Notes: generated from the letters alone by a model not told the origin. A DNA stretch of 64,000 nt from an uncultured Candidatus Saccharibacteria bacterium (GCA_964639295.1 CAZXDT010000001.1:245068-309067); one strand, 5' to 3'; positions 1 to 64,000 are shown, counted from the stretch's first letter. Made by a program: numbers and translations.

Positions 1-3000
1 CCACTTCCATCATAGCCACCAACCACATAAAGATAGCCGTTATAGCCAAACCCTGCCCCACGCCGGCGACCAAAATCTGTTAGGTTTGCAGATTCGATCC
101 ACGCACTACCACTCACTGCGACAATATTATTGCTATTGTCTATTTTGGCATACCTAGTCGTTTTAATGTCGTTAACTGCCGGTGTTAGACCACCCATAAG
201 ATATATATAGTTTGCGTATACCGTACCTGCCATTGCGCCAAGACCCGCAACCGAGTTACCAGGTACAATGCCAATTTGTAACTGCCCACTCTTGCTACAA
301 CCTGAAGGGACTCCAGAGGTATTAATTACACACTTGTATACACCGTCAGTATAGCTACCACAACCTATGCCACCAGGGCTCGCACAGCCACCAAGGATAT
401 ATAAATTGCCTGGGTTACTACCGGCAGATGAAGGGTTTGCTCTAGCAAACGAGTAAGTGTAAGAAACATCTTCGGCACCAATAGTAGCCATACTAGCCGT
501 ATTGCTCCATGAACTGATAGAACCATTGGAAGCACTTGGTTTAGCATAGTAGATCTGGTTAACACTCCCGGCTGCAGTAAACCCTCCTATGGAATATATA
601 TATCCATTAAAGACAGCCATACCTGGAGCGCCCACGCTGGCTGGAAGAGATGTTGTGTTATAGCAGTAAGCGGCCGTGGTTGACCAGCTCCCGCATGAGC
701 TTGGCTTGGTGAGTGTCCCATCACTGCCAACAGACGTATACAGTACACCGCGCGATACACTACCACAGCCAGCATTAGTGTTTGAGCAGCCCCCCCATAC
801 ATACAAATACCCGTTTAATACCGCACTACCGTTCAATACATCACCCACAATAGAAACACCAGGTAGATCACAATTATATGGGTTACCGCCAGAACATGTA
901 CCGCTACCACTAGGAACCGAGTTAGCCACGGTACTTGCCTCTCCTTCGGGGTTAATGATCCCGTAATCCACGTCGAAAACGGTATCTATACAGTCCCCTC
1001 CGACAGCATCTTGGCTACGGCAACCACCCAAACGATACAGCCCGCCCTGCCAGGCGATAAAGGTATGCCCCATGCGTGTATTCGATAGACCGGTGATTGT
1101 ATTCCACTCAGATAATGAGCCGTCTGCGTTAATACTTGCCAGCACCATGTCGCTAGCAAGAGTAGTACAATAGCCACTGGCATTCACTGCAGTACACCCG
1201 CCACCTAAATAAATATACCCAGCCCATATGGTGGCAAAATTCCCCCCCATTGTAGCCCTAGCACCCGCGGCAGAAAAATTACTTGTAGACTGCCACGAGT
1301 TCATTGTCCCATCGGAATTAAGCTTGCTATAGTACACCGAACTTCTAAGGTTCGCGGATGACGTTCCCGCTCCTTCGAACCCTCCTATGGTATAGAGAAC
1401 ATCATTGTATACCTGCGCACTCTGCATATGGGTACCAGCTCCGCCGGGCAAAGCCTGCATACCAGTTGTTGTCCAGGTATCTAGGGCACCCGTAGGTAAG
1501 ATATCAGCTTTCTCAACGGTAGTTACACCTCCAGGGGTGGCGTTCGTTTCACCACCCAAAACGTAGAGTCGATTATTGGAAGCAACTGCTGCAAAATAAC
1601 TTTTAGCCGTTGAGCCATTGAGATTTGCCGTGTACCAATAATCAGGGGTTCCTCCGCTTGGATGCCATTGCTGCGGCTCACCAGTAGCTCCAAGCTTTGC
1701 TACGTAGACAGTACTTACACGTGAACCGCCACTATTAACACCACCTAGTGCGTATAAAAAGCCGTTGTAAGCCACTAGAGATAAGCCCTTTAGTGAAGCT
1801 GGCAGGTTATATGCACTATTAGTACACCAGCCTGAACAAGCACCAGTGCCGGGATTTGGACTTTCGATTGCACCAGTATTAGGGTTAAACTTTGCCCAAT
1901 AAACTGATGAACTCGTAGCGGGCCCAGTAGTAGTATAAGAAATCACTACCGCACCTGCGGTACCCGCACTGTTACCACTCGTGGCAGTCGCACCGGTTCC
2001 ACCCTGGCCAGCACCATTTCGTTGGCTATCTGAATTATTTCCTGGTGTTGCACCTGAGCCAGCAGTTTCAACTGTACCGGTACCAGTAACAATATCACTA
2101 CCACCGCCGCCACCGCCGCCAGCTCGGTTGAAGTTAAGAAGTGGGTTGGAGGTACTACCACCACCGCCACCGCCAAAGCGACCGCCACCGCCACCGCCAC
2201 CTTGAAAGGTACCGCCAGCAGCACCACCGCCACCCGTGCCCCCTGCACCGCCCGTTCCAGCTGAACCACCGTTACCACCCGTATTTGCAATACCAGCAGT
2301 ACCGGCTACACCATTGGCACCAGCAGTACCAGCAGCGCCACCAGCACCCGCCGTACCAGCACCACCGCCACCGCCGGTCGCCGTACCACCGGCTACACCA
2401 CTGGTGCCACCGCCCGCACCACCAGCACCCCCAGCAGTTGTCCCAGCAGCACCACCGCCACCGCCACCTGCACCAGCCTGAATCAAGAACGTACCACTAC
2501 GCTGTACAGCTGAGTATCCGCCACCATTACCTCCATCATCGTTGGTAGCGCCCTTTGCACCCGCCGTACCGACACGGACATCTAACGTCTCACTCGGAGT
2601 GACCGACAATACCGCCTTAACATAGCCACCACCGCCACCATTGCCGCCAGCACCACTACCATTGTTCCCTACACCACCGCCACCACCAGCACCCCAAGCC
2701 TTAACAGTTATAGAAGTAACACCAGCAGGAACACTATAGGTGCCAGACCCAGCAGCATAGTAGGTTGATGTCGTCACCACCGAACCCTGCCCACCACCGA
2801 CTACGTAAATATAACCCCCAGCCACAGCGGTACCCTGACCCCATGCCGGCACACTCAAGTTATTTGTACTTGTCCAGTCATCTATACGTGCACCAGTAGT
2901 CTGGCTCTTTTGGATAAGCTCATTATCAACATCAAAGTCAGTGTTCGTTTCATTATTACCACGCATCAGTTTAACAGCAGTGTCCACATACACTGTCGGG

Positions 3001-4019
3001 TCAATGGATAATGGATACCGAGCGTTCTTAAGACCCTTAACCTTGATTGTAAGTTGACTCCCTTTTAGTTCGTAATGCGCCTTTACTGAAGATAGTTTTT
3101 TCTTACCTTCAATCACAACTGGCGCAGGAATGGTAAAAATGTGTTGCGTTTTAGCACCATTACTGCGGGCTTTTTCTAGTAATTCCTTATCTTGGTCAGA
3201 TGCAGTAGCCACGTTACCAAGCAATGCAGAGCTCACGCCATATATGCCAACAGAACCGTCTTTCTCCAAACGCGCTTCTAATCCGTTCGGCAGACTAATT
3301 TCGTAACTAAATTCTGCTGTATCCTTTTTAGAACTTTCCAGAATAATGTCTTCTTTAACACTCGCTGTCCTAGCTGAATACACTAAATAACCGTCATGAT
3401 CAGACATGCGATACATCATCTGGTTTTGGTCTTGCTTACCAGGTGATATTTTAAACTTTGGTTTTAGTGTCATTGTCGTTTTATTTGTGGGATCAGTAAC
3501 ACTCATCCCGGTGGTGGGAGTCTTATCAAAAGCTGCGTTAATGCGTGCTTCTCCAGTAGAGCTCATACCGCTATCAGGATTTAAGGTACCAGTGTAAGAT
3601 GCGTTGTACATAAACTTTTGCTCTTTTGTGTCATATTTGAGCAGCTGCGCCAATGTAGGGTTTTGCTGAGGTAATAGTGAACGAGCTGCACTACTTAGCT
3701 TGTAGGGCTTTTTATCAAGCATCGGCTCTACAACCGCCGCAATCATTGATACAAGCAATAAAATAACGACTACAACTATAAAAACTCTTCTCCATAAGCC
3801 TTTTGATGCCCATCGAGCAAAACTTGACGTTTTAAAACGGTACCAAAATCTGTGTTGATACGAGCCAGCTATCTTACCAATTGAACGTACAAGCCAGTAT
3901 TTCTCGCCGCTATGGCGCTCTTTTGTTGGGACTTTATGGGTTCCACGGATATGAGAAGCCGAGCCAACATGGTGCTGACTATTCCTACGACTACCTTGCC
4001 TCGGTCCTACCCCGTCCAT
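1..4019 (-). CDS. Giant membrane-anchored Kelch-like beta-propeller protein with an embedded glycine-rich domain. Only the 5' portion is present; the C-terminus lies beyond the window edge.
   Basis: Hand translation of the minus strand. ATG at 4017-4019 is preceded by an in-frame TGA. The frame (positions = 2 mod 3) matches the codons at the window edge (..GYNGYLYVVGGYDGS, nt ~1-50). It is absent from the ORF track because no stop lies inside the window. Order of parts: basic tail; TM (RRVFIVVVVILLLVSMIAAVV, ~nt 3740-3800); an N-domain paralogous to the 11271-16193 product (FSYEISLPNGLEARLEKDGSVGIYG, IPAPVV, SIDPTV); a Gly-rich block at ~1935-2790; then repeated xYNGxLYxxGG blades. Confidence 0.8.
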   Translation of the reverse strand, partial: MDGVGPRQGSRRNSQHHVGSASHIRGTHKVPTKERHSGEKYWLVRSIGKIAGSYQHRFWYRFKTSSFARWASKGLWRRVFIVVVVILLLVSMIAAVVEPMLDKKPYKLSSAARSLLPQQNPTLAQLLKYDTKEQKFMYNASYTGTLNPDSGMSSTGEARINAAFDKTPTTGMSVTDPTNKTTMTLKPKFKISPGKQDQNQMMYRMSDHDGYLVYSARTASVKEDIILESSKKDTAEFSYEISLPNGLEARLEKDGSVGIYGVSSALLGNVATASDQDKELLEKARSNGAKTQHIFTIPAPVVIEGKKKLSSVKAHYELKGSQLTIKVKGLKNARYPLSIDPTVYVDTAVKLMRGNNETNTDFDVDNELIQKSQTTGARIDDWTSTNNLSVPAWGQGTAVAGGYIYVVGGGQGSVVTTSTYYAAGSGTYSVPAGVTSITVKAWGAGGGGGVGNNGSGAGGNGGGGGYVKAVLSVTPSETLDVRVGTAGAKGATNDDGGNGGGYSAVQRSGTFLIQAGAGGGGGGAAGTTAGGAGGAGGGTSGVAGGTATGGGGGAGTAGAGGAAGTAGANGVAGTAGIANTGGNGGSAGTGGAGGTGGGGAAGGTFQGGGGGGGRFGGGGGGSTSNPLLNFNRAGGGGGGGSDIVTGTGTVETAGSGATPGNNSDSQRNGAGQGGTGATATSGNSAGTAGAVVISYTTTGPATSSSVYWAKFNPNTGAIESPNPGTGACSGWCTNSAYNLPASLKGLSLVAYNGFLYALGGVNSGGSRVSTVYVAKLGATGEPQQWHPSGGTPDYWYTANLNGSTAKSYFAAVASNNRLYVLGGETNATPGGVTTVEKADILPTGALDTWTTTGMQALPGGAGTHMQSAQVYNDVLYTIGGFEGAGTSSANLRSSVYYSKLNSDGTMNSWQSTSNFSAAGARATMGGNFATIWAGYIYLGGGCTAVNASGYCTTLASDMVLASINADGSLSEWNTITGLSNTRMGHTFIAWQGGLYRLGGCRSQDAVGGDCIDTVFDVDYGIINPEGEASTVANSVPSGSGTCSGGNPYNCDLPGVSIVGDVLNGSAVLNGYLYVWGGCSNTNAGCGSVSRGVLYTSVGSDGTLTKPSSCGSWSTTAAYCYNTTSLPASVGAPGMAVFNGYIYSIGGFTAAGSVNQIYYAKPSASNGSISSWSNTASMATIGAEDVSYTYSFARANPSSAGSNPGNLYILGGCASPGGIGCGSYTDGVYKCVINTSGVPSGCSKSGQLQIGIVPGNSVAGLGAMAGTVYANYIYLMGGLTPAVNDIKTTRYAKIDNSNNIVAVSGSAWIESANLTDFGRRRGAGFGYNGYLYVVGGYDGS

Positions 4020-4074
4020 ATGTGTGTTTGTACCCTCAAAATCCAAGTCTCAATTGGAATTCCTTATGCTTTCC

Positions 4075-4667: not shown

Positions 4668-7600
4668 CTATGTGTTACTAAATGTGAAGTCTAAGTTTTC
4701 TATATATACATTGCCGCTACTCTTAGATGTAACCGTAATCTTAAATATGACGTAATCACCCGCCACGAAACCGCAAGCAGTCTCATCGCCAGTAAGCGCC
4801 GTTTGGTTCCAGGCGCCGGTTCCTGTGGTAACGGTTGTACTTGATCCACACTGAGTAATTACATTTCCAATAACATTCTTTCGGTATACATTCAGTGTTG
4901 CACCTGCGTTTGTCGCATGGTCTTTATATGCAGTAAGCTTGATGGTATTAGCATCGTAGAAGCCCTTGAATGTTGACGGGAGTTTGTAGTTAACATATAC
5001 ATCGTAAGTCTGGTCCGTTGCCTGAGGTGAAGTCCATCGGTAGAAACTTCGAGCTTCATGGTTGGCACAGAGTGACCCCACGACAAGCACCGTAGACTCA
5101 TTAGCACAGAAGTCCGCGGTCATAACACCCACGCCACTACCGTTAAGCACAGCGCCCGTATATTCTGGGGTCAACGTAATGATGTTGTCTGGAGCCGAAC
5201 CACAGGCACCCCAACCATCTGACTCGTAACACTGGATGCGGCCGGTGGTTGTGTCGTAGTACATTGAACCGTAGTAGGTAGTATTACCGTTAGCCACCGG
5301 CGCACTTGAGAACCGATCAAGCGTAAAGAGTGTTGGCTGGCCACCTAAGAGACCACCACCAATCTGAACATTTGAAGGGGTGGTTGTGGTACTGATTTCA
5401 GTAACACTCAAGTTATCTATATAGAATGTTCGGCCCGTACCATCTGACTGACGTATGACAATAGCATTAGACGAGTTGATAGTGCCAGTTGCTGTAAATG
5501 TACAAGTTATCTTACTCCAGGCAGTACTAGCAATGGCCTGCCCCGTCACACAAGTTGCGTTGTCAGCAGTACCGTTACCGGAGTAGACGACATCGATGGT
5601 ACTAACTGGTCCAGCCGTACTCAACTTGGAAGTAAAGGATACTTGATAGGCCTTTGTGGATGTCAGCGCGATACTTAGTGTGTCTTTTGCGCCTTGAGTA
5701 GAGCCGGTAGTAACGACCTTCACGGAAGCCTGTCCTGTGGCAATGAAGCCTGCAGTTACTGCCTCACGTGTGACAGTTCCACCGCCTGCACCAGCAGCCC
5801 AAGTACTTGCTGGGAATGTCGTGGATGAGCCACCCGCGGTCTCTGCACCACCGTTGGTTGCGTATTCGGTAGCGTAGTTATTGACACTAAAGAGGTTAGT
5901 ACCGATAGAGCTCTGCACTTCTAGCAGACCACCATTAATTGGTGTCGTGCCATTATTACGGATAGTAAAGCCATCTGCGGCGCCACCAGAGGCATTAAGT
6001 ACAAGTTCAGCACCACCTGCAGAAGTCAGGGTGTTGTTGTAGGCGGATTGAAGGTCGGTTGAACTTGAAGCACCAGCGGCGGTCCAGTCTGTACCGTTCC
6101 AGATAAGTGTTGCTGTGCTGTTAGCCTTCATGGCAATGTCAATTGGTGTGCGAGCGCTGTTCAAGCGCATTGTGAAGTCTGACGAGCCACTTCGTGCAGA
6201 AATGTAGAGCAAGCGACCAATAACATTCTGAGCAGGATCAGGAACGGTTAGTGTAAGTCCTGTGGCTGTGGCCTTTACAGGGAGAGTACTGTATACGTCA
6301 ACATTACCTGCTGTTATAGAAACACTCGTTGCAAACGCTTGTTCACTCGCAGAAGTAAAGGCTGTAGTTGCAAGGTTAACAAGACCTTGGGTGCCCGTTC
6401 CAACCCCAGCGCCACCGACTATAGTAACGGCGCCACCATTGGCGTTGCCTGTGCCACCTGCGCCACCACCTTGGAGAGTTAATACGCCACCAGCAAAGGC
6501 ACTAGCACCAGAACCCGCTGCACCAGCCTTGATTGTGAGACCATCACCTGCGGCGTTGGTCGTACGTGTTAAGACGTTGATGTTACGGCCAGAGCCTCCA
6601 TTTTCGCCAAAGGTTAGATCGGCGGTTGGAGTTGCCGCACCTATGTTTACGCCAACGTTACCGTTCAGACGACTAATACCACCTACAGTTAGTGTATTTG
6701 AACCAGAGACCGATACGTTGCCGTTAAAGGTTGATGCCTGAGTAACCGTGAGCGCACCGTTGATTGTGGTAGTTACACCGGTCCTAGATACAGATACGGC
6801 TGTTGCGCTACTTGCCCCCAAGTTCAGGCTGGCAGCAGCATCAAGTGACAAGTTGCCCGCAGAGGTACTCCAGGTTGTAGCCGCAGCACTGGTCAATGTA
6901 AGTGCACCAGTAGTAGTACTAACGGTACTTGCCTGCTGAAATGCCAAGTCACCAGAAGTGTTCAAGACTGCCTTAGTCGTACCACCTGTTCGTAGGTTGA
7001 GCGCAAACGCATCGTTAGTACCAAGATCTGCTGCTGCGCCAAAGGTATTTCCACCTTGTACGAATGCCGCACCCGTACCGGTTGCATTACAGGCAGCAAA
7101 TTGATTGCTAGCGTTCCTACATATATATGTAGCATTGCTTGCTGTACCAAGTGTGCCGACCTGAACAGTATCGTTTAGAATGATCTGTCCAGTTCCGTTA
7201 GCAACAACCGTGAGGTCTTGGTTGGTACCAGTTGTAATATCAGTACCAGCGTTTGTGACAGTGAGTGATCCAGAGGTGCTTAGGTTACCGGAAGCATCGA
7301 CTTGCAACTGGTTAGATGAACCGACGTTTAACGTGCCAGAGACATCAAGGTTACCCGTAATATTAGTATTCTTTAGTAGTTCTATTGTGCCAGTTGGTTG
7401 AATTGCAAAATTACCGAGGTTATCAACCTGCCCCCCATACACCGAGTTGCCACTAGTATCATTGATGTCTAAGGGGTCAAACTCATTGTCAGATATGTAT
7501 GAGAAGTTACTTGTCGCATCAATACTAATAGCGACACCACTTGCTCCTTGGTCATATACGTAGTTACTCGTAATACGAGTGTTGTCGGAATTTATCAGCG

Positions 7601-10600
7601 TAATACCATTTACGCCATTTGCATTGATCTTGTTACCATTAATATTTGTGCCACTTGAAGTATCAAGTGTGATGGCGCTCAGCGTGTTCCCAACGATATT
7701 GCTCATAACTGAGTTATCAACAGAGACATTGGCAGCCGCATTACCGCTGAAGTTAAATACCACAGCGCCTGTCGTGAGACTTAAGTTCGTCATCAAGTTG
7801 CCACTAATGACTGCGACTGAGGCCGAATTAGTTACAACAAGATCGGCTAATAAGGAGTTGCCAGTAAAGTTATAAATTACTGAGTTATCAATAATAATAC
7901 CGCTCGTGCTCTTGTTGCCAGTAAAGTTAACTAGACTTGAACTATTTAATAAGTGAAGCGCATTACCGTGGTCCCAACCACCAAGGCTCAAGCCAGTAAG
8001 TGAAGCGTTAGACAGATCAGACATTTGGTCAAAGTACACACCGTCCTGTGTACCGCCAGTACCAAGACTACCATCGATAGTCATATCACGAATACCAACA
8101 CCGGTACCCGGAACATCTTTGTTCTCTATTAGGTGATCACTGCCACTACCGACATTAAGCTGTACTACGGTGTTCAGACCGGCACCAATAAGTGTTGTGT
8201 TGCTTGGGATTAGTATCGTACCGTTTGCTACAAACGTACCTTCAGTCAGGTACACTTTGCCACCCGCAGCGGCATTCAATGCGGTGTTAATTACCGTTTG
8301 GTCACCCGTGCCGGTTGCTACGTAGTCAGCGGCATCCTTAACGGCCTGAGATGCGCCGCTTGCAGCCACAATCTTAGTTGAATCCGAGCGATCTGCCTGC
8401 CATTTTCCGTTGGCATATATAAGCAACTGTTTAGTTGTGCTGTCGTAATATAACATGCCCTCAGCTGGTGATGCTGGACGTGAGGCAGTGTTGCCACCGG
8501 TGAGCTTCAAGTATTTGCCGGCTGCTATAGTTACGTCACTGTTAAAGGTCGCGGCTTCTGTGACAGTCAGTGAGCCATTGATCGTTGTAACTACACCTGC
8601 CTTAGAGATGTTAACTGCATTGGCATTACCCGTACCCACACCAAGCGCAGCTGCAGTCGCAGTGTCAAGAAGCGGAGTCAAGAAGCTTACATCAGCACGG
8701 CCGCTGCCACTGATCCAGTAGTTACTGGTAGTTTGAGCGCCAGCGTTTTGGTTCTGGATATAGCTAGCAGCGCTACCGACCGCGAAGGCGCTACAGGTCA
8801 CGGTATCATCTAGCTGCGTAATAGCCTGTCCGGCAGTACATGCACCTGGGTAGTTTGTAAGCGCAGTCCAGTCAACGCTGCCGCTAGAATCAATTGTGAT
8901 TGAGTTACTGACGTATGTATCAGTAAGCGCAGTGCCATTCCATACGCCCGCTGTGATAGTTCCAACTGTAGTGATGTCGGTTAAATTGCCGGTAGTAATG
9001 ACAGTACCGGTAGCGTTAGGTAGTGTGTACACTTGATTGCTAGTCAAATCAGCATTTGTAACAGTGCCCGTAAATCGTGCAGCGCCACCCGTGGTGATAG
9101 CAGTAATGATTTGATCGTCCGTTGCGGTTGCGTTACCAACTGTCAGGGTGCCTTGGAATGTCTTGTTACCCGCAAATGTCTGAGTACCAGTACTAACCAT
9201 GCCAGGATTTGTAGTGTCAGCAGCACCGAAAGTAATCGTTGTGCCACTGATACTTGCACCATTAGCGATTGAAGTGTTTGAGAACGTACCGACTGTGTTG
9301 ACACCAACACCGCCTGTTGCTGCACTGCCACCGGTAACACGCCAAACGGTGCTTGAGCTGTCGTAGACTAGTTCAATCGTGGCACCCACTGGAATACTCA
9401 AGCTACCCCCAGTACCGGTCGTAATTTGGTTGTTGCTAGCACTTGCGCCACTCAAGTTAGCAATGGTTGCTACGGCAGAACCCGCGTTCACCAGCGTGAT
9501 GCGACGGCCATCTGCACCGTTAGCAATACCAGTAATCGTCTGTGCGCTAAGACCAGTTAGGCGGAAAAGCGCACCAGTACCAAAGTCGACATCGTTCTGA
9601 CTGCCTACAGTACTGTAGTCACTACCTTTTTGGAATGAGACATTCCCGGCGTTAGTAACAACCAGGCCACCCTTAGCAGTAGTTAGCCCGTTAATATCCA
9701 GTGTTGAGCTGAATGTACCTGCCTCTGTCACTGTCAGCGCACCACCAACGGTTGTTGTCATTGCAGCCTTACCGATGGTGATGGCAGTAGCGTTGGTCGT
9801 GCCAATACTGAGCGTTGTGCCAGTGTAAGTATCAACACTGGCTGCCACTTTCAAATTACCGGCAGCCGTTACTGAGCCAAGTACCGTACCGTTGGTTGCT
9901 TGGTATTCTACGAGGTCAACCGTTTGCCCTGCATCAGCGCCACGGAAAACGCCAGCAGCAGTACCATTTACACCGCTATCCTTGGCCTGAATATTGAAAT
10001 TTGATTGAGTTTGCAGGCCTGTATCATTGTGGATGTAGTAGGCGGAGCCAGTTGCCGCAGGACAGTTACTGACAGAACCGTTAAATACACAGATTGTTCC
10101 TGGGCTGGCTGTGGTCGCCAAAGATGTATCCGGGAACAAGAATTTGCGGTCTGCAGTCATGGTTGCGAAGTCCACCGTGCCGGTAAACGAACCTGTGTTC
10201 TTCTGAAGTGTCTCGGCGCTGTCAGCCACTGTTGCACGGAATGCAAACGGTACTGAGGTGAGTCGGATACGCGGTGTCATTTCCCCGTCCCAGGTTGCAA
10301 GACCAACACCACCAATGTTCATCGTTAACCAAAGCTGCTGGTTCCAGATGTTCGTTGGGAGTGAAGTCTTATCACCGAGGTAAGCACTGAGGTAGCCATT
10401 TTTGACTTCAATCTGTTGGTTACTCGGGTCAGAACTTAATCGAGTTTCAGTCCAGAGACAGTTTGCATCTCCGGTACAGCTGCCCTGGCTTGAGCCAGAT
10501 GAAGTACTTGCATTGAAAATTTTGAATTCAACGTTGTAGATACCATCAGGGACAAGACTACCAGAGCTGTTGAGTAAGCGAGCTTGGAAGTTGAGCGTAG

Positions 10601-10829
10601 CAGGACTTGCCGCCTGTACGTGTTGCGTACCCGCACGCGTAATAGAATATACAGAGGTCAGAGTTACCAAAACCAAGAAAACAACAAACACCCTCTTCGC
10701 AATTAGCGCAAGGGTGTGACGTAACAGTACCGGTATGTTGGTTGGTTTTGACACTTTGTTTTGTAATTTTTTGTATTGGCTTTTTGCAAACGTTTTTGTT
10801 TGATTTTGCGTATCCCTAGGCAGAATCAT
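4668..10829 (-). CDS. Giant (2053 aa) N-terminally anchored fibre protein with a tailspike-like right-handed beta-helix module, a CBM-like jelly-roll segment and a conserved C-terminal domain
   Basis: ORF track, ATG start. Signal anchor is AKRVFVVFLVLVTLTSVYSI. The fibre is T/G/S/N/A-rich. Neck motif GGNTASRPASPAEGMLYYDSTTKQLLIYANGKWQADR (~8395-8505) is followed by KVYLTEGTFVANGTILIPSNTTLIGAG and ~280 aa of imperfect ~22-aa N/G/I/T coils (~7400-8260), as in PbH1/pectate-lyase-like beta-helices. NGGAE...FYIDNLSVTE (~5400-5880) resembles CBM4/9-type modules. The last ~190 aa are shared with the 3332-aa protein. Confidence 0.9.
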   Translation of the reverse strand: MILPRDTQNQTKTFAKSQYKKLQNKVSKPTNIPVLLRHTLALIAKRVFVVFLVLVTLTSVYSITRAGTQHVQAASPATLNFQARLLNSSGSLVPDGIYNVEFKIFNASTSSGSSQGSCTGDANCLWTETRLSSDPSNQQIEVKNGYLSAYLGDKTSLPTNIWNQQLWLTMNIGGVGLATWDGEMTPRIRLTSVPFAFRATVADSAETLQKNTGSFTGTVDFATMTADRKFLFPDTSLATTASPGTICVFNGSVSNCPAATGSAYYIHNDTGLQTQSNFNIQAKDSGVNGTAAGVFRGADAGQTVDLVEYQATNGTVLGSVTAAGNLKVAASVDTYTGTTLSIGTTNATAITIGKAAMTTTVGGALTVTEAGTFSSTLDINGLTTAKGGLVVTNAGNVSFQKGSDYSTVGSQNDVDFGTGALFRLTGLSAQTITGIANGADGRRITLVNAGSAVATIANLSGASASNNQITTGTGGSLSIPVGATIELVYDSSSTVWRVTGGSAATGGVGVNTVGTFSNTSIANGASISGTTITFGAADTTNPGMVSTGTQTFAGNKTFQGTLTVGNATATDDQIITAITTGGAARFTGTVTNADLTSNQVYTLPNATGTVITTGNLTDITTVGTITAGVWNGTALTDTYVSNSITIDSSGSVDWTALTNYPGACTAGQAITQLDDTVTCSAFAVGSAASYIQNQNAGAQTTSNYWISGSGRADVSFLTPLLDTATAAALGVGTGNANAVNISKAGVVTTINGSLTVTEAATFNSDVTIAAGKYLKLTGGNTASRPASPAEGMLYYDSTTKQLLIYANGKWQADRSDSTKIVAASGASQAVKDAADYVATGTGDQTVINTALNAAAGGKVYLTEGTFVANGTILIPSNTTLIGAGLNTVVQLNVGSGSDHLIENKDVPGTGVGIRDMTIDGSLGTGGTQDGVYFDQMSDLSNASLTGLSLGGWDHGNALHLLNSSSLVNFTGNKSTSGIIIDNSVIYNFTGNSLLADLVVTNSASVAVISGNLMTNLSLTTGAVVFNFSGNAAANVSVDNSVMSNIVGNTLSAITLDTSSGTNINGNKINANGVNGITLINSDNTRITSNYVYDQGASGVAISIDATSNFSYISDNEFDPLDINDTSGNSVYGGQVDNLGNFAIQPTGTIELLKNTNITGNLDVSGTLNVGSSNQLQVDASGNLSTSGSLTVTNAGTDITTGTNQDLTVVANGTGQIILNDTVQVGTLGTASNATYICRNASNQFAACNATGTGAAFVQGGNTFGAAADLGTNDAFALNLRTGGTTKAVLNTSGDLAFQQASTVSTTTGALTLTSAAATTWSTSAGNLSLDAAASLNLGASSATAVSVSRTGVTTTINGALTVTQASTFNGNVSVSGSNTLTVGGISRLNGNVGVNIGAATPTADLTFGENGGSGRNINVLTRTTNAAGDGLTIKAGAAGSGASAFAGGVLTLQGGGAGGTGNANGGAVTIVGGAGVGTGTQGLVNLATTAFTSASEQAFATSVSITAGNVDVYSTLPVKATATGLTLTVPDPAQNVIGRLLYISARSGSSDFTMRLNSARTPIDIAMKANSTATLIWNGTDWTAAGASSSTDLQSAYNNTLTSAGGAELVLNASGGAADGFTIRNNGTTPINGGLLEVQSSIGTNLFSVNNYATEYATNGGAETAGGSSTTFPASTWAAGAGGGTVTREAVTAGFIATGQASVKVVTTGSTQGAKDTLSIALTSTKAYQVSFTSKLSTAGPVSTIDVVYSGNGTADNATCVTGQAIASTAWSKITCTFTATGTINSSNAIVIRQSDGTGRTFYIDNLSVTEISTTTTPSNVQIGGGLLGGQPTLFTLDRFSSAPVANGNTTYYGSMYYDTTTGRIQCYESDGWGACGSAPDNIITLTPEYTGAVLNGSGVGVMTADFCANESTVLVVGSLCANHEARSFYRWTSPQATDQTYDVYVNYKLPSTFKGFYDANTIKLTAYKDHATNAGATLNVYRKNVIGNVITQCGSSTTVTTGTGAWNQTALTGDETACGFVAGDYVIFKITVTSKSSGNVYIENLDFTFSNT

Positions 10830-10833
10830 TGTG

Positions 10834-10862
10834 GGGCGGATATATTTTTATCCGCCCTTTTT
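10834..10862. promoter_or_regulatory. Strong GC hairpin 4 nt upstream of the start codon of the 2053-aa gene (5'-UTR structure, or a plus-sense terminator)
   Basis: 9-bp stem GGGCGGATA (10834-10842) / TATCCGCCC (10849-10857), 6-nt loop. The T-run 10858-10862 is present only in plus sense. The ATG is at 10827-10829, and no SD is visible between hairpin and ATG. Confidence 0.5.
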
Positions 10863-11270: not shown

Positions 11271-14200
11271 CTATACGCCGAGCGGACAGGTATCGAATGG
11301 ACTGAGATCACCCTTCTGTAAGGTCTGACCATGTCGTAAACGTATGTTTGGCGCTGGGCGAACATAATTGTAGTTAACGGAAAAGTCTGTGACACCTGCT
11401 ACATCTGTAGGAGCCTCTCCAAATGTACCTCCGGTTGCACCACCAGCCATGTCATCAAAGGTAATCATGACAAAGACATATCGTGCCTTGACCACTGTTA
11501 GACTACATACAAGATCAGGGGTATTAGGGGCAATGCTTGATGCGCTGAACGTCAGATTTGTGCTCGTCGCAGTCTTGTAGCTTATGTTGCCAAAACTGTC
11601 TGCGAGAGACCCGTTATACATAATGCTATTTACTCTGGCGTTGTCTGCCCCAAGGTCAACTATTTTAGAATAACGCCCGATACGTGGTTGCAACTGCAAA
11701 GCGGCACCTTGGCTGTCCGCTAACAGTGCCGAACCTGTCTTCATACCCCCTAAGATGTAGAAATAACCGTTAGTAATGACGCTGGCGTGAGTATATCTTG
11801 GGTCCGTATAAGAACCAAAGCGGACAGACCACTCACCTGTACTTCCACCGGTGTAAACTTGAGCTGCCTGGGTATCAGACTGGTATGTGGAACAGCTGCC
11901 AGAGCTGTTTGCACTACAGCCTCCACTCAAGTACAGCGTACCGTTACGAGCAGTTAGAGCGGCCCCGTAGCGGGCTATAGAGATACTTGTCGAAGCATTC
12001 CACGTACTACTGACGGTTCCATCAGTGTTAATAGTTGCATACTGTACGTCATCTTTAAAAGTAGTACAGTTGCCTGATGACATGGCACTACAGCCTGCCA
12101 TAACGTATAAATTACCGGCATACGCCACTACGTTTTGCAGGAAGCGACCTGTGGCAAAAGTACCCCCCGTTACAGTCCAGCTGCCTAGGCTACCATCCAC
12201 ATTCACCTGGGCATATTCGACGGTGTCTTTGAAGGTACTACAGTTACCAGACGTAGTTGCACTACAACCACCTATGACATACAAGTAACCATTGTAGGAA
12301 GCGGCCGAGAGACCATAGCGTGCAGTGGCAAGTGTAGTGCCAGCGCTCGCCCAACTATTACCAGTTGTATTACCGTCACTGTTAAGCTTTACTCGCTGAA
12401 CATCATTCAGGAAAGCCGTACAGAAGCCGTTAGTACCACCTGTGGAGCTACAGCCACCCATGACGTACAAATACCCATTGTAAGCAGCCATAGCGTGGCC
12501 ATAACGAGCAGTGGGTACATTGCCCGCTGTGGTTAATGTACCCCATGTTAGGGTGCCGTCCACGGCAATAGAAGCATATCTTGTATCGTTTGTAGAAACC
12601 GTACAACCCGCAATACCTGTAGCTGTACTACACCCCCCTGTTAGATAAATGTAGCCGTTGTAGGCGACTGCAGCCGTTTGAGAACGCGCTGTCGTGAAAC
12701 TTCCCTTATTAGCTCCTGCCTGGGCATATTCACCACCCCCGTTATTAATCTGTGCATTCTGATAGGTGATAAGCATCTGAGCAGTACCGTTACAGTTAAG
12801 AGTTCCTAAGGTTGACCTCGACGAACATCCACCTATGACATACAGATTACCATTAGTGATAACCGTTCCGTGATCATAGCGCTGCGTCGAGAAACTAGTT
12901 GTAGTAGTCCAGCCACCTAGGCTACCGTTCGAGATATTTACTTGTGCTTTATAAACAGTCGCATACGTAGCAGAGGCACCTGCACCATTCTGACCACCGG
13001 TTATATACACGTATCCATTACTAAAGTTCACATTGTAGTCCATGAGTCCATTTGCACTAGCAAAGCTGGAACCGCTACCACCATTAGTAGCGTTGTTTGC
13101 ATCTTTCCAGCCGACTGTACCATCAAGCGTACCGTCGCTTTTGATCGGTATGAACCATACATCATCTGCATCATTTGTCTGGAAACCCCACTCATTGCCA
13201 CCCGCAGTATTATCTCCTCCAACAAGATATAGTCTGTTATTAGCAACAAAGGTCTTAGGCTCAGCACGTCCCACATTGGACGGAAGGTTTGTTGTTGTGG
13301 CAAAAGTCCCAACACCACCGCCTGCAGCTAACGGCGCATAGTAAACGGTAGCATAGCTAACACTTGCACCTCCAGGATTACCGCCATCATTACGTCCGCC
13401 TATGAGGTATATATTTCCATTATATATTTCCATAGAGATCTTAGAGCGCCCATCAGCATCGTTGTAAACAGTGGTACTATTTGTTACAAAATCGGCAAGC
13501 TGGGTAGTCCAAGTAGCAGCGCCACCTGTTCCACGAAGATCACCAGCAGCAGCACAGCCAGTAACTGGAGTATTCACACCAGTACATACTACCGCCGACT
13601 GCACATCACTCCAAAATGTTCGGGCAGTCCCACTAGCATTAGTCCAACCACCCGCCATGTAGACGTAGCCATTGTATGCTTTGGCAGCAAACTCTACTCG
13701 CCCAGGACAACTACTGGCTCCGCTACAAAAATCTCCACCAACGCTTGTAACGTTATTGAAGGTTGCAGAAGCAGTCGCCCAAGTGCCAAGCGTGCCATCG
13801 GCGTTAATTTGAGCATATCGAGTAGTGTTGAGCATATTCACAGTTGCACCTGCATTTGAGACTGTGCCGCCAATAGCGTATATAAAACCACCATAAGAAA
13901 CTGTAGAAAATCCTGTGCGTCCATTTGTGGGTTCATAGTTTGCTGCTGTACCGTAAGCCGCAGTAACACCTGGGGTATCAATCTTCGCCACCTGGACATC
14001 GTTCGTCGTGGCGTTACAACTAGCAGCGGTACACCCACCAATAATGTACATGTAGCCGTTCGTTATAAGTGTGCCTGAGTACTCTCTGGACGTGCCACTA
14101 TATAAAGAGGTTGATTTGATCGGTGCAATTGAGCCATCCGCCTGTACCTGCGCGTACTGTGTGATATGCGTATTACCACCACCTATACCCGTATATGTGA

Positions 14201-16193
14201 AATAGTATATATACCCCTTATACACAGCTGCTTCCGTTTCGAGTGAAGGGCTTGCAAATGCATTTGGTGAGGTAGTCCATGTTGTCCCCAGGGAGCCATC
14301 TGCATTTATGGTCGTATATTGTGTGTCTGTTGCGCGAATACTATTACTCGTACATGTCGAGAAAAGGTTTTGCGTACACCCGCCCATAATATAAATCCGC
14401 CCATTATAAGCAACCGCTGCGCCCCTGTGTCGCCCTATAGGCAGTGCGTTACCTCCATTATTACTCCATGTACCAAGTGAACCATCCGCCCGTAGTTGTG
14501 CGTACTGGATAGTGGTAATCCTAACTGTACTGTTACAATTTATCCACGTTCCGCTACAACCGCCCAGAAGGTATACGTAGCCGTTATATACAGCCGACTG
14601 AGCAACTGCTGTCGCCTGGAACAAATTTGAACCCGCATTCCATGTACCAAGCGAACCAGCAGTGGAACTACAGCCGTTAACACCACTGTTGCTCCCTGTA
14701 CATATTTGCGCATAGTACGTATTCTGGAATGAAGCATTAGTGGCATTACCTCCACCAAGTACATAGATAAATCCGTTATAAACAACAATATTGGTAACAT
14801 CGAGTTGGTTACCAGCCAGCGTAGTTGCCGCAACCCAGTTACCAAGTTTGCCCGCTGTAGCATTCGAGTCACATCCCAAAGGCGTGTTACTACTTGGCCC
14901 TGTACAAATCAGTGCATAGTACACATTATTCGTTCCAACTCCGCCAGTTAGGCTACCGGCAACGCCGTAGAGATACCCATTGTAGGCAGCAGTTCCAGCA
15001 AACCCTGTTGCTGGAAAAAGCGTAGTCCCCGTATTGGCTGCACCAGCCCACGATCCAATAGTACCGCCCGTTAGACTACCCCTGTTTACTCGGTCTGTTC
15101 CAAAATCTATATTGCCTTCGTCGTTACCACCCGTTGCAAAGTCCGATGTTGATGTCACTAGCACACTTGGGTCGATACTGAACGTGCCCTTAATATCTGC
15201 TAGATGCGATGCTACTACTGCTAACTGATTATTATGCAGTTCAAAACGGGCGTTTGCGGAGCCCCTCTCGCCATTAGTTGTGATGACTGGTGCAGGAATA
15301 CCGAATACAAGGTTTGTTTTTTCTGCCTTTTCTCGAGCCTTATCCACTAATTCACGGTCCCTGTCACTGCCGTAGCTCATATTAGTAAACAGAGTTGGAT
15401 CCCCAGAGTAAATACCAATACCGCCACTACCATCTGGGAGCTGCCTGGCCTCAAGTGACTTTGGTAGCTCCAATTTGTAGCTGAAGCTTAAACTATCCTG
15501 CTTGTTGTTTGTAACAACAATATCTTCTTTAAGTCCATTATTTTTTAATGTATAGACTGCTTGAGGACCGCTATCCAACGGGAAGATGATCCTACCCTGC
15601 TCTGCTTTTGCGGGAAGGCTGTTGAACTGTGGGACGAGCTTGAAGCTAAGCTTAGAGTTAACATCATGATATGTAACCCCTTTTTTAGGGTCAGCTGGGA
15701 CATCTAAGGCGTAGAGTGACTTGGTTTTATCACCTGCACCACCAACCTGCTGCTGAAGAGCATCTACTGGGTTGTATTCCTTGATGGCATCCTTGTTGAA
15801 TTCATATGTCTGAGTCTGGGCGTTGAACTTGAGCTTACCGGAAAGAGCCTGGTTGTTTTTACCAACGAGTCCGATTGTATCCTGTGATAGACGATAGCGT
15901 TTGTTAGGAAATATATCTCCTACGTAAGGAGTCACAATGGATACTAGCAAGACAAAGGCCACAACTACATTAGTTGTGCGCCACCCCAGACGATGTTTAC
16001 TGTCCTGGTGCTGCCACCAGGACACAACCTTCTTGAATAGGCGTTTCTTCCTTGTATTCATCTGTCTCACCTCTTCTAAGACAGACTGTGTATCAAAACG
16101 ATGGCTAAACACAGCAACACGACGGACATACTGTGATGTTCGTCGCGTGCTTAGTGTGGTGATGTTTTTTGTTTTTGTCATAGTGCCAGTCAC
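11271..16193 (-). CDS. Giant membrane-anchored Kelch-like protein with ~18 blades, enough for three six-bladed propellers
   Basis: ORF track. The 16193 start is GTG. A better start is ATG at 16061 (MNTRKKRLFKK..), preceded by GAGGTG 6 nt upstream. TM is NVVVAFVLLVSIVTPYV. The N-domain is paralogous to that of the 1-4019 product. There are 18 copies of the [AV]xYNGxxYxxGGC-type blade motif, most with paired Cys (GGCSxxxxxxC). Confidence 0.9.
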   Translation of the reverse strand: MTGTMTKTKNITTLSTRRTSQYVRRVAVFSHRFDTQSVLEEVRQMNTRKKRLFKKVVSWWQHQDSKHRLGWRTTNVVVAFVLLVSIVTPYVGDIFPNKRYRLSQDTIGLVGKNNQALSGKLKFNAQTQTYEFNKDAIKEYNPVDALQQQVGGAGDKTKSLYALDVPADPKKGVTYHDVNSKLSFKLVPQFNSLPAKAEQGRIIFPLDSGPQAVYTLKNNGLKEDIVVTNNKQDSLSFSYKLELPKSLEARQLPDGSGGIGIYSGDPTLFTNMSYGSDRDRELVDKAREKAEKTNLVFGIPAPVITTNGERGSANARFELHNNQLAVVASHLADIKGTFSIDPSVLVTSTSDFATGGNDEGNIDFGTDRVNRGSLTGGTIGSWAGAANTGTTLFPATGFAGTAAYNGYLYGVAGSLTGGVGTNNVYYALICTGPSSNTPLGCDSNATAGKLGNWVAATTLAGNQLDVTNIVVYNGFIYVLGGGNATNASFQNTYYAQICTGSNSGVNGCSSTAGSLGTWNAGSNLFQATAVAQSAVYNGYVYLLGGCSGTWINCNSTVRITTIQYAQLRADGSLGTWSNNGGNALPIGRHRGAAVAYNGRIYIMGGCTQNLFSTCTSNSIRATDTQYTTINADGSLGTTWTTSPNAFASPSLETEAAVYKGYIYYFTYTGIGGGNTHITQYAQVQADGSIAPIKSTSLYSGTSREYSGTLITNGYMYIIGGCTAASCNATTNDVQVAKIDTPGVTAAYGTAANYEPTNGRTGFSTVSYGGFIYAIGGTVSNAGATVNMLNTTRYAQINADGTLGTWATASATFNNVTSVGGDFCSGASSCPGRVEFAAKAYNGYVYMAGGWTNASGTARTFWSDVQSAVVCTGVNTPVTGCAAAGDLRGTGGAATWTTQLADFVTNSTTVYNDADGRSKISMEIYNGNIYLIGGRNDGGNPGGASVSYATVYYAPLAAGGGVGTFATTTNLPSNVGRAEPKTFVANNRLYLVGGDNTAGGNEWGFQTNDADDVWFIPIKSDGTLDGTVGWKDANNATNGGSGSSFASANGLMDYNVNFSNGYVYITGGQNGAGASATYATVYKAQVNISNGSLGGWTTTTSFSTQRYDHGTVITNGNLYVIGGCSSRSTLGTLNCNGTAQMLITYQNAQINNGGGEYAQAGANKGSFTTARSQTAAVAYNGYIYLTGGCSTATGIAGCTVSTNDTRYASIAVDGTLTWGTLTTAGNVPTARYGHAMAAYNGYLYVMGGCSSTGGTNGFCTAFLNDVQRVKLNSDGNTTGNSWASAGTTLATARYGLSAASYNGYLYVIGGCSATTSGNCSTFKDTVEYAQVNVDGSLGSWTVTGGTFATGRFLQNVVAYAGNLYVMAGCSAMSSGNCTTFKDDVQYATINTDGTVSSTWNASTSISIARYGAALTARNGTLYLSGGCSANSSGSCSTYQSDTQAAQVYTGGSTGEWSVRFGSYTDPRYTHASVITNGYFYILGGMKTGSALLADSQGAALQLQPRIGRYSKIVDLGADNARVNSIMYNGSLADSFGNISYKTATSTNLTFSASSIAPNTPDLVCSLTVVKARYVFVMITFDDMAGGATGGTFGEAPTDVAGVTDFSVNYNYVRPAPNIRLRHGQTLQKGDLSPFDTCPLGV

Positions 16194-16219: not shown

Positions 16220-19200
16220 CTAGAACTTACTGTTATATCTTAGTGTAATATTTCCAAGGAATGTTATTGGGTAGTTTGTGCTGTTAGCCGTACCACTCAT
16301 CCTAATCTTAATGGTCATCCAGTCATTGGTCGTGTAGTTACCACTTAATGACCCTGCTGCTACGTCAGCCCAAGTTGTACCAGGGGTACCCGTGGTATAT
16401 GTTGATGGATAGTTCGTTTCAAAGGTATTATTACTGTCAACTATAGCGATACCGTATGCGGCACTAGAAGCACCGGGTGTAGTACGCATCATCTGAATCT
16501 TAATTGGATCCCCAACCGTATCCCATCCATCCCAGTCCTTAGGAATTGGTACCTGTACAACCACGTCATAACACTGGGCTGATGTCTGTGTCGTAGTCCA
16601 CTGGTAGTTATTCATACGAGGGTTGCTTGCAGTATCGAAGCCACTCGTCATTGTACCGTTGTTTGCACTACTACAACTTGAGTCCGCGGCTGCGTCGAGC
16701 ACCGCCCCAGCAAACTCTGGCTGGAGCACGATTGTCTTAACATTTCTTGCTGTACCGTTAAGCGTAAACGCCCCTGTTGTTGTACCACCAGAACCACTCA
16801 AAGTTATGCCGTTACTCGTAGAACCGATCTGTATGGCACCGCTACCAGCTACGCTGAACAGCGTTGCGGCTGAGTTATTTTGAATCAAGAAGTTGCCAGT
16901 TGCACCAGTGCCACAAGCAGTACAGTTGAGCTTCATGATGATACTTGGATCTGTTGTAGTATCTGCAGCGGTGAAGCTAATGTTCTTGTTGTCAGCAAGT
17001 GTGATGTCAGCAGGTGAAGAAGCGTTGTATACACTCTGGAGGCTACTTACCGTACATGTACCCCATGAAGGGGCTGCAACACCATTACCGGAGATCAGAC
17101 ACTGGCCAGTTGAACCTACTGCAGTTACACCGAATGCACTTGTACCATTGCCAAACAGCACCCCATATTGAGTAAAGCTAGCGGCGCCAGAGCCACCATA
17201 CTGAACACCAACAGTAGATCCATTCCATGTACCGGCTGTCACGACACCACTTGTGTTCACGGCAAAGGCGTTTGCAGTACCTACATTCAATGAGCCCTCG
17301 AAGTCTGCATTTACGGTCGCAGTAAGGCTACCAGTAATGTTTGTAGTCTTCATGAGTTCTATCGTTCCTGAAGGCTGGAGTTGGTAGTTGCCAGATGCAT
17401 TCTCTTGCCCAGCTAATACTCTTGTTGCATCAGTGCCACTAATGGCTCCACCCGCCATAATATTGCTACCCAAGATGGTGCCTGTACCGTTATCTGAAAT
17501 ACCTGCACCGTTAAGACCGTTATTTGCAAAGTAGTTATTGTCTGAGGTACTGTTCGTAACAACAAGTCCATTACAAGTAGTAGTACAGCTTGTGTCTGTT
17601 ATGTTGTTTCCGGTAATAGTGTTACCGTCTGAGGTTGTGAGAGAAACCGCATTGTTGGCTGTAGCACCACCCGTATCACTCACTGCATTTCCACTAATAA
17701 TGTTGTTGTTACTAGACAGTAGTGAGAAACCATTCGCGGCATTTGTATTTACCGTGTTACCGGTAACAGTGTTATTAGAACTTGAACTTAGGAAGACGCC
17801 GTTTAGAGTATTGCCTTGTAGAGTGTTACCTGTAATGGTGTTGAACGAGCTACTGGACATGTAAATACCCATGTTGTCACTACCCTGTGCGGTGTTACCG
17901 GTAATATTGTTATGAGAACTTGAGATAAGCATAATACCTGCGGTAGCATTACCTTCAGTAGTGTTATCGCTAATAGTGTTGTTGTTTGAGTTGCGTATAC
18001 ATATACCTGCACCCAATTGACAAGTCGCAACTGCACCGCTGTACCAGTTATTGCTCTGAACATTACGTATCTTAGCACCTGGACGAGCACTTGTACCCGA
18101 GCCGCCGCCCATGTTATTGAAGTCAATTCCACTCATACCAACGGCTGTGGCTTGTTGGGACTTATTGCCATCAAGACGTAGATCTTGAACCGTTACATTT
18201 GTACCAGTGGTAGTATCAGTGTTAACTATGGCACTAAAGTTAGTGTTTAGAGCGTTAGGGATGGTTATAAGCGTGCCTGCTCCTACACCGGATAGTGTAG
18301 TGTTGTTCGGTATAGAGATGCTTCCATCAATAGTGTACGTACCGGCAAGAAGAACAACTTTCTTACCAGACGCAGTGGTTAACGCACTGTTAATTTGAAC
18401 CTGATCACCATCGAGTGCAGCTCCTGTGTTGCCATCGCCTACATAGTCAGCAGCGTCTTTATCATTCTGGCTACTGTCACTTGCTGCAACGTAGATTGCA
18501 TCGCCACGATCAGCCTGCCACTTACCATTAGAGTAGGTCATGATCCGCTTAGTATCAGTATCGTAGTAAGTCATACCCTCAGTTGGTGAACCAGGACGTG
18601 AAGCAGTGTTGCCACCGACAATACGGAGGTATTGACCAGCGGCAACTGTGACATTCTTATTTAGGTTGATACCTGTAGCGTTGGTTGTGCCGATATTAAG
18701 CAGAGCAGCTGTTGGGGTGTCGATAAGTGGGGTGGTAATGCTCGTATCAGCACGACCTGTGCCACTAATCCAGAAGTTACTTGCAGACTGTTGTCCGGCA
18801 TTCTGGTTCTGTATGTATGAACTGGAACCGGACCCAGCAGCATAACCAGTACAGACAGAGCCTGTAGTACAGATAGTACCGTCTTCGTTAGGTAGTGTCC
18901 AGGTACGTGCGGCAGTTAGGTCGGCATTGGTGATTGTGCCGTCAAAGCGGGCAGCACCAACTGCAGCAACTACAACTTTAATGCGATCCTGTGTTGCGGT
19001 TGCACTATCGACAGTGACCCCTCGTATGGTTGCTACGCCCGTGAAGCTACTGGTGCTTGTAACAGAGAACGTTCCAGTAACATTTGTGTTCTTCGTGAGT
19101 TCAATTGTGCCAGCAGGTTGGATGTAGTAGTTGCCGTTGGCTTCATCCTTTACCTGGCCGTTGAAGATGGTAGTTGTACCACCATCGTTTACAGAACCAC

Positions 19201-63491: not shown

Positions 63492-63498
63492 TATATAA

Positions 63499-63612
63499 TT
63501 CGGCACCGTGCTATTTTCCCAGGGGTGAACCCCAAGTATTGTAACCGCGGCGAGGCTTAACTTCTGTGTTCGGTATGGGAACAGGTGTCGCCCTCGCGCC
63601 ATGGGCACCGAA
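63499..63612 (-). rRNA. rrf: 5S ribosomal RNA
   Basis: The reverse complement reads UUCGGUGCCCAUGGCGCGAGGGCGACACCUGUUCCCAUACCGAACACAGAAGUUAAGCCUCGCCGCGGUUACAAUACUUGGGGUUCACCCCUGGGAAAAUAGCACGGUGCCGAA. It has the conserved CCGAACACAGAAGUUAAGC block, and the termini pair as helix I. Ends are good to +/- 3 nt. Confidence 0.93.
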
Positions 63613-63799
63613 CGGATACCATCCCGTAGAATGATATCTATCGATGTCCATAACGATGCGCTATGTAACTATAAAGATAGAAATATATATTCGAATATTG
63701 AAAACAAACGCCTTATTATCGTGCTTGGAAGCACCAATAACTAGTCAATGTACTTTTCTCTTGAACAGGCCAGAGTAAACTCTGAGTCGTTCAAGAGAA

Positions 63800-64000
63800 C
63801 GTAAAAAGTCTGTGGGACTATTAGTACGCTTCGGCTCAATACATTACTGCACTTTCACCTTGCGCCTATCAACCTGATCGTCTATCAGGGTCCTCATAGA
63901 GAAATCTAATCTTGGAGTCAGTTTCGTGCTTAATATGCTTTCAGCACTTATCTATTCCGCACATAGCTACTCAACAATGCCATTGGTATGACAATTGATA
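63800..64000 (-). rRNA. rrl: 23S ribosomal RNA, 3' end (continues beyond the window)
   Basis: The plus strand aligns to the reverse complement of the 23S 3' domain as I remember it from E. coli: ATTAGTAC..GCTCAA..CGCCTATCAAC..GTTTCGTGCTTA.ATGCTTTCAGCACTTATC..TCCGCA..TAGCTAC..TGCCATTGG.ATGACAA. The 3' end is placed by analogy, +/- 10 nt. Confidence 0.9.

Follow-up and report, generated by a model that had tools for sequence, protein, structure and literature searches.

A putative surface fibre of a Saccharibacteria chromosome that joins a tailspike-like beta-helix to a jelly-roll of the carbohydrate-binding type

Among the closest described counterparts of the gene treated here are the mosaic adhesive trimer (MAT) fibres of the bacterial predator Bdellovibrio bacteriovorus, long phage-like fibres of a bacterium living at the expense of other bacteria, for which binding of prey glycans has been proven (PMC10769870). 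In these fibres a signal peptide precedes a conserved N-terminal beta-rich domain of ~130 amino acids (aa), the distal domains form an exchangeable mosaic, members occur with and without a Peptidase_S74 chaperone, the shaft is a trimeric beta-prism/beta-helix, and a glycan ligand has been demonstrated for one member. We have analyzed a 64,000-nucleotide (nt) stretch of DNA, hereafter the window, from an uncultured Candidatus Saccharibacteria bacterium (GCA_964639295.1 CAZXDT010000001.1:245068-309067), in which the gene of a putative fibre of 2053 aa shows, in its sequence and in monomer models, a plan that is similar in part: a hydrophobic segment, then an analogous N-terminal beta-rich domain at aa ~74-200, then modules that vary from relative to relative, again with and without Peptidase_S74. 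It differs from the MAT fibres in being about twice as long, in belonging to a family that strings right-handed, pectate-lyase-type beta-helices in series, in ending in a carbohydrate-binding module (CBM) and a jelly-roll, and in having a conserved rather than variable C-terminus. A direct sequence link to the MAT fibres was not seen, i.e., a profile of the N-terminal domain retrieved only proteins of Saccharibacteria/Patescibacteria type among the best 120 of 386 matches.

Individual parts of the fibre have other known relatives. Phage tailspikes and pre-neck appendages (phi29 gp12, CBA120 TSP2/3, HK620, Streptomyces phages) share with it the neck, the right-handed beta-helix and the pectate-lyase-type N-cap, whereas the fibre gene is chromosomal, encodes an export signal and no virion-attachment domain, has relatives with up to four helices per chain, and shows no conserved catalytic acids. 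No other proteins match the whole helix as well, in structure and in profile, as the A-modules of AlgE mannuronan C-5 epimerases (PDB 2pyg, 5lw3), but the fibre lacks equivalents of Tyr149, Asp152, His154 and Asp178, lacks R-modules, and places its helix in a fibre context. CBM_4_9 modules (CBM22, CBM16 and CBM4; 4xup, 2zez) have the same jelly-roll fold and the same N-terminal 'NGG.E' and C-terminal 'YIDN.S' signatures; the identity is 12-18%, and the module of the fibre differs in its family-specific Cys pair and in being attached to a fibre instead of a glycoside hydrolase. PfbA of Streptococcus pneumoniae (3zpp/4mr0), which is displayed on the cell surface and whose right-handed beta-helix is non-enzymatic, agrees in fold and profile, but is small, sortase-anchored, and devoid of a neck or CBM cassette.

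We regard the gene as a further member of a family that is already annotated automatically, and as probably encoding a modular adhesin of an episymbiont, an ultra-small and parasitic bacterium of the Saccharimonadia (CPR). The parts of the fibre are the following.

4668..10829, minus strand: fibre gene, 2053 aa, with an ATG start at 10829
10638..10715, minus strand: hydrophobic segment, aa 39-64, the single strongly hydrophobic segment of the protein (Kyte-Doolittle scan)
10230..10610, minus strand: conserved N-terminal beta-rich domain, aa ~74-200 (profile search)
8379..8498, minus strand: neck motif, aa 778-817, a three-stranded element in the AlphaFold2 (AF2) model
7398..8378, minus strand: right-handed parallel beta-helix, aa 818-1144, with pectate-lyase-type N-cap, coils of ~18-23 residues and an Asn ladder
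6072..6359, minus strand: small beta-sandwich, aa 1491-1586, with which the C-terminal cassette begins; AF2 predicted local distance difference test (pLDDT) ~80-93, weak Phage_depo_C match, found in the hidden Markov model (HMM) census
5388..5870, minus strand: jelly-roll of the CBM_4_9 type, aa 1654-1814, which varies more than any other cassette module and contains a conserved Cys1760-Cys1776 pair
5193..5330, minus strand: second neck-like motif, aa 1834-1879, GSMYYDTTTGRIQCYESDGWGACG, strongly conserved and including aa 1857-1873
4671..5180, minus strand: C-terminal jelly-roll-like beta-sandwich, aa 1884-2053 (AF2, Foldseek)

The neck string GGNTASRP...KWQADR (aa 778-814) occupies 8388-8498, within ~7 nt of where an earlier note on this DNA had placed it (~8395-8505), and every motif quoted in that note is present in the open reading frame. 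The helix was modeled with AF2 as a monomer, using a 391-aa segment that starts at aa 770 and an alignment of 24 related modules; the model has a mean pLDDT of 90.2 and a pTM of 0.82, and regular beta coils extend from aa 858 to ~1124. The best-ranked Foldseek matches of this model are known right-handed parallel beta-helices, among them the A-modules of the epimerases AlgE4 and AlgE6 (E 6e-8 to 5e-7, TM ~0.5-0.57), with further matches to an alginate epimerase/lyase, RbmB, chondroitinase B, the PfbA adhesin, and the CBA120 and HK620 tailspikes. Searches of the PDB with the single sequence were uninformative; the matches came with family profiles, and a profile of 25 related modules aligned the whole helix to the AlgE6 A-module (E 1.2e-25), followed by NosD (3e-14) and the phi29 pre-neck appendage gp12 (~1e-13). 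Fold matches and family profile together establish the right-handed beta-helix fold and superfamily, which bears out the coils that the earlier note had seen at ~7400-8260 (aa 857-1144). The invariant positions are the cap and an Asn ladder (N242, N261, N297, N320 and N346, numbered from aa 770). HMMs built from relatives detect exactly one neck-helix unit in the fibre protein, and throughout the family the neck motif directly precedes a beta-helix. When aa 770-1160 were scanned alone against Pfam, the three matches agreed with one another, but each fell below its cut-off: PF12708 (Pect-lyase_RHGA_epim) at 22.6 bits against 27, NosD at 19.7 against 23.6, and Beta_helix at 17.3 against 25.9. 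The latter family is passed easily by a relative, P0001 (159.7 bits), and by a 3332-aa neighbour (111 bits), and the helix of the fibre is a degenerate short-coil subtype.

For the C-terminal cassette, the assignment of a CBM4/9-type module at ~5400-5880 in the earlier note is upheld by Pfam, by fold matches and by the family profile. The signature NGGAETAGG...FYIDNLSVTE spans aa 1659-1811 (5397-5855), and the segment aa 1640-1830, scanned alone, reaches 30.5 bits with CBM_4_9 (PF02018; E 5.4e-7), which is above the gathering score of 25.9, and covers profile positions 15-126 of 136. In the AF2 model of aa 1440-2053, the mean pLDDT of which is 71.5, disordered linkers join three well-folded beta-sandwiches at aa 1491-1586, 1654-1814 and 1884-2053; the second of these is modeled as a jelly-roll and corresponds to the CBM (model residues 215-375), in which block pLDDT values lie mostly at 71-89, with one block at 60. 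The best Foldseek match of the cassette is the tandem CBM22-1-CBM22-2 of Xyn10C (4xup), and since the alignment runs over ~400 columns, both jelly-rolls are matched; target TM-scores are 0.65-0.70 for CBM22, 0.56-0.68 for CBM16 and 0.61 for CBM4-2. In agreement with this, the CBM family profile retrieves CBM22 (7.6e-6) and CBM16 (1.6e-4) from the PDB. The terminal jelly-roll, aa 1884-2053, matches no Pfam family and its profile finds no sequence relative in the PDB; it holds the conserved cysteine pairs 1908/1921 and 1994/2019, and the pair 1867/1876 belongs to the second neck. The CBM is the least conserved part of the cassette, with a mean pairwise identity of 39% as compared with 50-72% for the other modules, and the second neck and terminal domain are conserved at 54-66% identity. 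The second neck-like motif, the C-terminal jelly-roll and the small beta-sandwich had not been described in the earlier note.

At the N-terminus, the hydrophobic segment could act as a cleaved signal peptide or as a signal anchor, and a possible AXA cleavage site (VQA|AS) follows it. An alternative GTG start at codon 26 coincides with the beginning of several homologues. The beta-rich domain behind the segment matches no Pfam family; it is common to 115 of the 120 homologues tested and to 386 database proteins. The 16 cysteines of the protein form 8 close pairs (118/124, 247/256, 664/679, 1237/1247, 1760/1776, 1867/1876, 1908/1921 and 1994/2019), several of them invariant among relatives, which suggests local disulfides; lying downstream of the hydrophobic segment, the pairs fit an extracellular protein. 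Strongly charged residues (Lys, Arg and Glu) make up 5.5% of the protein, and its long fibre stretches are rich in Thr, Gly, Ala, Ser and Asn. The hydrophobic segment, the cysteine pairs and the share of charged residues speak for export, and the protein would be displayed on the cell surface.

The family to which the fibre belongs is large and variable in its modules. Database searches gave 271 homologues, giant proteins of 1100-3600 aa whose named sources are Candidatus Saccharibacteria or Saccharimonadales; many carry precomputed PF13229, PF05048 and PF02018 annotations, and JGI and NCBI already give relatives the names 'parallel beta-helix repeat protein' and 'carbohydrate binding domain-containing protein'. 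In the species-representative genomes scanned, 190 places carry a confirmed C-terminal cassette, and among the 80 places listed nearly all are in metagenome-assembled genomes of Saccharibacteria/Saccharimonadia, the best being 73% identical. A protein identical to the fibre is absent from the contig index searched. A census with HMMs of six modules on 124 proteins (120 homologues and the four giants of the window) found 0-4 neck-helix units per member, at varying positions, followed by the beta-sandwich, one to five CBMs, the second neck and the terminal jelly-roll. Helix and CBM occur together in 22 of the 124 proteins. Among the closest homologues, identity to the fibre is 57-81% in the N-terminal region and 57-81% in the C-terminal domain, and 28-48% in the neck-helix units. 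This low identity and the copy number of the neck-helix units, together with the CBM being least conserved, place diversification where ligand binding is to be expected. Relatives with the same neck-helix units carry a Peptidase_S74 end and YadA_head repeats, both above the Pfam threshold, which hints that the fibre may be a trimer. Our literature search found no paper on the family, on its serial neck-helix units, or on a link to the tail proteins of phages of Gram-positive hosts.

Such a link is apparent from sequence comparison. Over 98 aa, neck and N-cap share 38% identity with gp166, a minor tail protein of the Streptomyces phage Frankenweenie, and a second module of the family, searched against 50,697 phage genomes, matched solely 17 Streptomyces and 5 Staphylococcus phages, in genes annotated as minor tail protein, tailspike or pre-neck appendage. 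The neck of P0001 scores 25.8 bits with DUF2793, just below the family threshold. In predicted viral tail proteins, CBM-like domains commonly stand in arrays. The term 'tailspike-like' used in the earlier note is therefore apt with regard to the architecture of neck and right-handed beta-helix, the Frankenweenie identity and the phi29 profile match.

We consider it somewhat likelier than not that the gene product is a modular fibre, secreted and displayed on the cell surface, which resembles phage receptor-binding proteins in its construction and serves adhesion to envelope glycans of a host bacterium. Its parts would follow one another as export or anchor segment, conserved N-terminal domain, beta-fibre stretches, one neck-helix unit and C-terminal cassette; ligands would be bound by the variable beta-helix and the variable CBM, specificity would be set by how many helix and CBM units are present and of which type, and the ligand would be cell-envelope glycans of the bacterium that carries the episymbiont. 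A glycan ligand is a reasonable expectation for a CBM-type jelly-roll joined to a tailspike-like neck-helix, and to this extent the glycan target proposed in the earlier note is plausible; the depolymerase part of that proposal is not supported. Saccharibacteria in culture live on Actinobacteria and require envelope proteins that bear polysaccharide-binding or -degrading domains (PMC10633639), and our reading agrees with what has been proposed for such proteins there. In another patescibacterium, proteins of very large size are targeted to the surface by preference and contain adhesion domains (PMC13059738). Our reading also fits the binding of prey glycans by the MAT fibres.

Several observations weigh against this assignment. 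The beta-helix Pfam scores of the fibre protein itself remain below threshold, and a whole-protein Pfam scan reported none of the beta-helix or CBM families, the matches given above having been obtained from segments scanned separately. A conserved surface aromatic platform was not seen in the CBM; its conserved aromatics (W1677, Y1728, F1732, Y1749 and W1771) are family-wide and may be core residues. Conservation is higher in the terminal jelly-roll than in the internal modules, which is the opposite of what is found in phage receptor-binding proteins and fits a self-anchoring C-terminus. The conserved cassette could be a wall-binding end, directed at the cell's own wall, and since the only hydrophobic segment (aa 39-64) may or may not be cleaved off, either end of the protein may be the anchored one; that the fibre is anchored, as the earlier note has it, is an assumption. 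Finally, the only beta-helix surface protein of the cultivated Southlakia epibionticum, SEML1_0645, which may or may not be homologous to the fibre protein, is non-essential in transposon sequencing (Tn-seq).

One alternative is an envelope or surface-layer (S-layer) type structural protein, in which the signal peptide would be cleaved, CBM and terminal jelly-roll would bind the cell's own wall glycopolymer, and helix and fibre would form a protective or spacing coat. C-terminal carbohydrate-binding wall anchors are common among surface proteins of monoderm bacteria, and the possible VQA|AS cleavage site behind the hydrophobic segment is in favour of this alternative. The cassette is moreover the conserved core of the family, the terminal domain being present in 87 of the 124 proteins, 57 of which are without any beta-helix, and it is in the terminal domain and second neck that the 54-66% identity is found. 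One relative, P0045, bears the NCBI name 'S-layer family protein'; however, P0045 itself matches no NCBIfam model, the NCBIfam search having given nothing meaningful, and neither SLH, CWB2 nor any other known wall-anchor family was found in the Pfam and NCBIfam scans. If its ligand were a conserved self polymer, the CBM would not be expected to vary more than the rest of the cassette, as it does, and variable copy number and phage-like modules fit recognition of a target better. We judge a structural role in the envelope to be unlikely. A further alternative, which we rate as rather improbable, is that of an active surface-tethered depolymerase or modifying enzyme (lyase, hydrolase or epimerase), the helix of which would cut or remodel capsule, teichoic acid or exopolysaccharide of the host while the CBM targets the substrate. 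The closest solved relatives of the helix are indeed enzymes (AlgE epimerases, alginate epimerase/lyase, RbmB, chondroitinase B, alpha-1,3-glucanases and phage tailspikes), beta-helix and CBM are a common combination among carbohydrate-active enzymes, and five Asp residues near the two ends of the helix (D905, D915, D919, D1093 and D1124) are fairly conserved. The catalytic residues of AlgE, however, are Tyr149, Asp152, His154 and Asp178 (PMC7385640), and these align to G955, H959, L961 and N982 of the fibre protein and are unconserved in the 25 modules; an AlgE-type enzyme is rejected on these residues. None of the 12 charged residues in the helix body, aa 929-1079, is conserved, the invariants being Asn ladder and cap. 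In addition, the non-enzymatic adhesin PfbA matches about as well as the tailspikes do, and the module is of the degenerate short-coil kind, with a Beta_helix score of 17 bits as compared with 111 and 160 bits for the 3332-aa neighbour and P0001, respectively. The attribute 'depolymerase-like' in the earlier note thus holds at the level of the fold and not for catalysis; enzymatic cleavage of a glycan is possible and is not supported by the sequence, and since both AF2 models are monomers, an active site between subunits may exist.

Given the similarity to tail proteins of Streptomyces and Staphylococcus phages, a prophage or phage-derived tail fibre gene that serves a virus or a tailocin instead of the cell has also to be weighed. 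Weak PHROGs matches (virion structural protein and tail spike) and weak Pfam matches to BppL_N and Phage_depo_C point in the same direction. Yet Pfam scans of ten large neighbour proteins gave no match to capsid, portal, terminase, tail-tube or integrase families, the neighbours being other giant surface proteins and housekeeping genes; the fibre protein has an N-terminal export signal; and the C-terminal cassette is a regular constituent of Saccharimonadia genomes, with its 190 confirmed places, and has no tblastn match in the 50,697 phage genomes. The housekeeping genes in the window encode isoleucyl-tRNA synthetase, class II ribonucleotide reductase, FtsZ, FtsA, methionine aminopeptidase, PriA, a formyltransferase and IF-2, and together with ribosomal RNA (rRNA) genes at its right edge they identify the window as bacterial chromosome and not phage. 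A prophage origin is rejected from the gene context, service to a virus or tailocin is highly improbable, and the word 'fibre' in the earlier note does not apply in its phage sense.

Returning to the adhesin, a broader and more speculative view, which we put forward tentatively and think doubtful as a whole, is that the family is the cellular counterpart of phage receptor-binding proteins. Its members would be trimeric 'poly-tailspike' fibres with one to four neck-beta-helix cassettes per chain; cassettes and variable CBMs would be swapped between Saccharimonadia lineages and set host range, and the cassettes would be of common descent with tail proteins of phages that attack the same hosts, which are Gram-positive (actinobacterial). 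If this were true, episymbiont and phage would draw on one common pool of host-recognition modules. How Patescibacteria find and hold their hosts is largely unexplained beyond type IV pili, and host range is not yet predictable from genomes. The family offers defined candidates for binding tests, in which variable phage-like beta-helix and CBM modules are set on a conserved scaffold, and the sequence type of helix or CBM is a possible marker to be correlated with host identity. Glycan-targeting surface proteins are already an accepted idea for the Saccharibacteria phylum, and practical value is limited by the organism being uncultured, by the presence of the same domain annotations on relatives, and by the function being a prediction.

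The fibre gene sits within a cluster of giant surface-protein genes. The other features of the window are given below.

3-4049, minus strand: Kelch-like giant frame of at least 1349 codons, which leaves the window at its left end and adjoins the fibre gene downstream
11271-16193, minus strand: 1640-aa protein with multiple Kelch beta-propeller repeats, upstream of the fibre gene and between the two beta-helix giants
16220-26218, minus strand: 3332-aa protein (g3332) with two neck-helix units, aa 1948-2367 and 2535-2924, upstream of the fibre gene
51964-62295, minus strand: 3443-aa protein, the N-terminal start of which consists of two MerR-type helix-turn-helix domains
63498-64000, minus strand: 5S rRNA gene and 3' end of the 23S rRNA gene, at the right window edge

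A hydrophobic segment, Kelch-like repeats and long runs of poly-Gly mark the frame at the left end as another giant surface protein. The 3332-aa protein is 39% identical to the fibre protein over 710 aa; it contains neither a CBM nor the C-terminal cassette. Stretches of the 3443-aa protein are 59-60% identical to the 3332-aa protein, and its MerR-type start is odd for a giant protein.

At the DNA level, the stretch encoding the neck (8359-8543) is the sole part of the fibre gene that is repeated elsewhere in the 23 kb scanned (4000-27000). The 3332-aa gene has a copy at each of its two necks, at 18477-18661 and 20238-20422; the copies are only 62-72% identical, and a recent recombination between the necks of the two genes is set aside on this ground. 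A strong 10-bp hairpin followed by a T-run at 10833-10858, 4 nt from the ATG of the fibre gene, reads as a plus-strand terminator; possible roles are a block to antisense transcription or a fold in the leader of the fibre mRNA.

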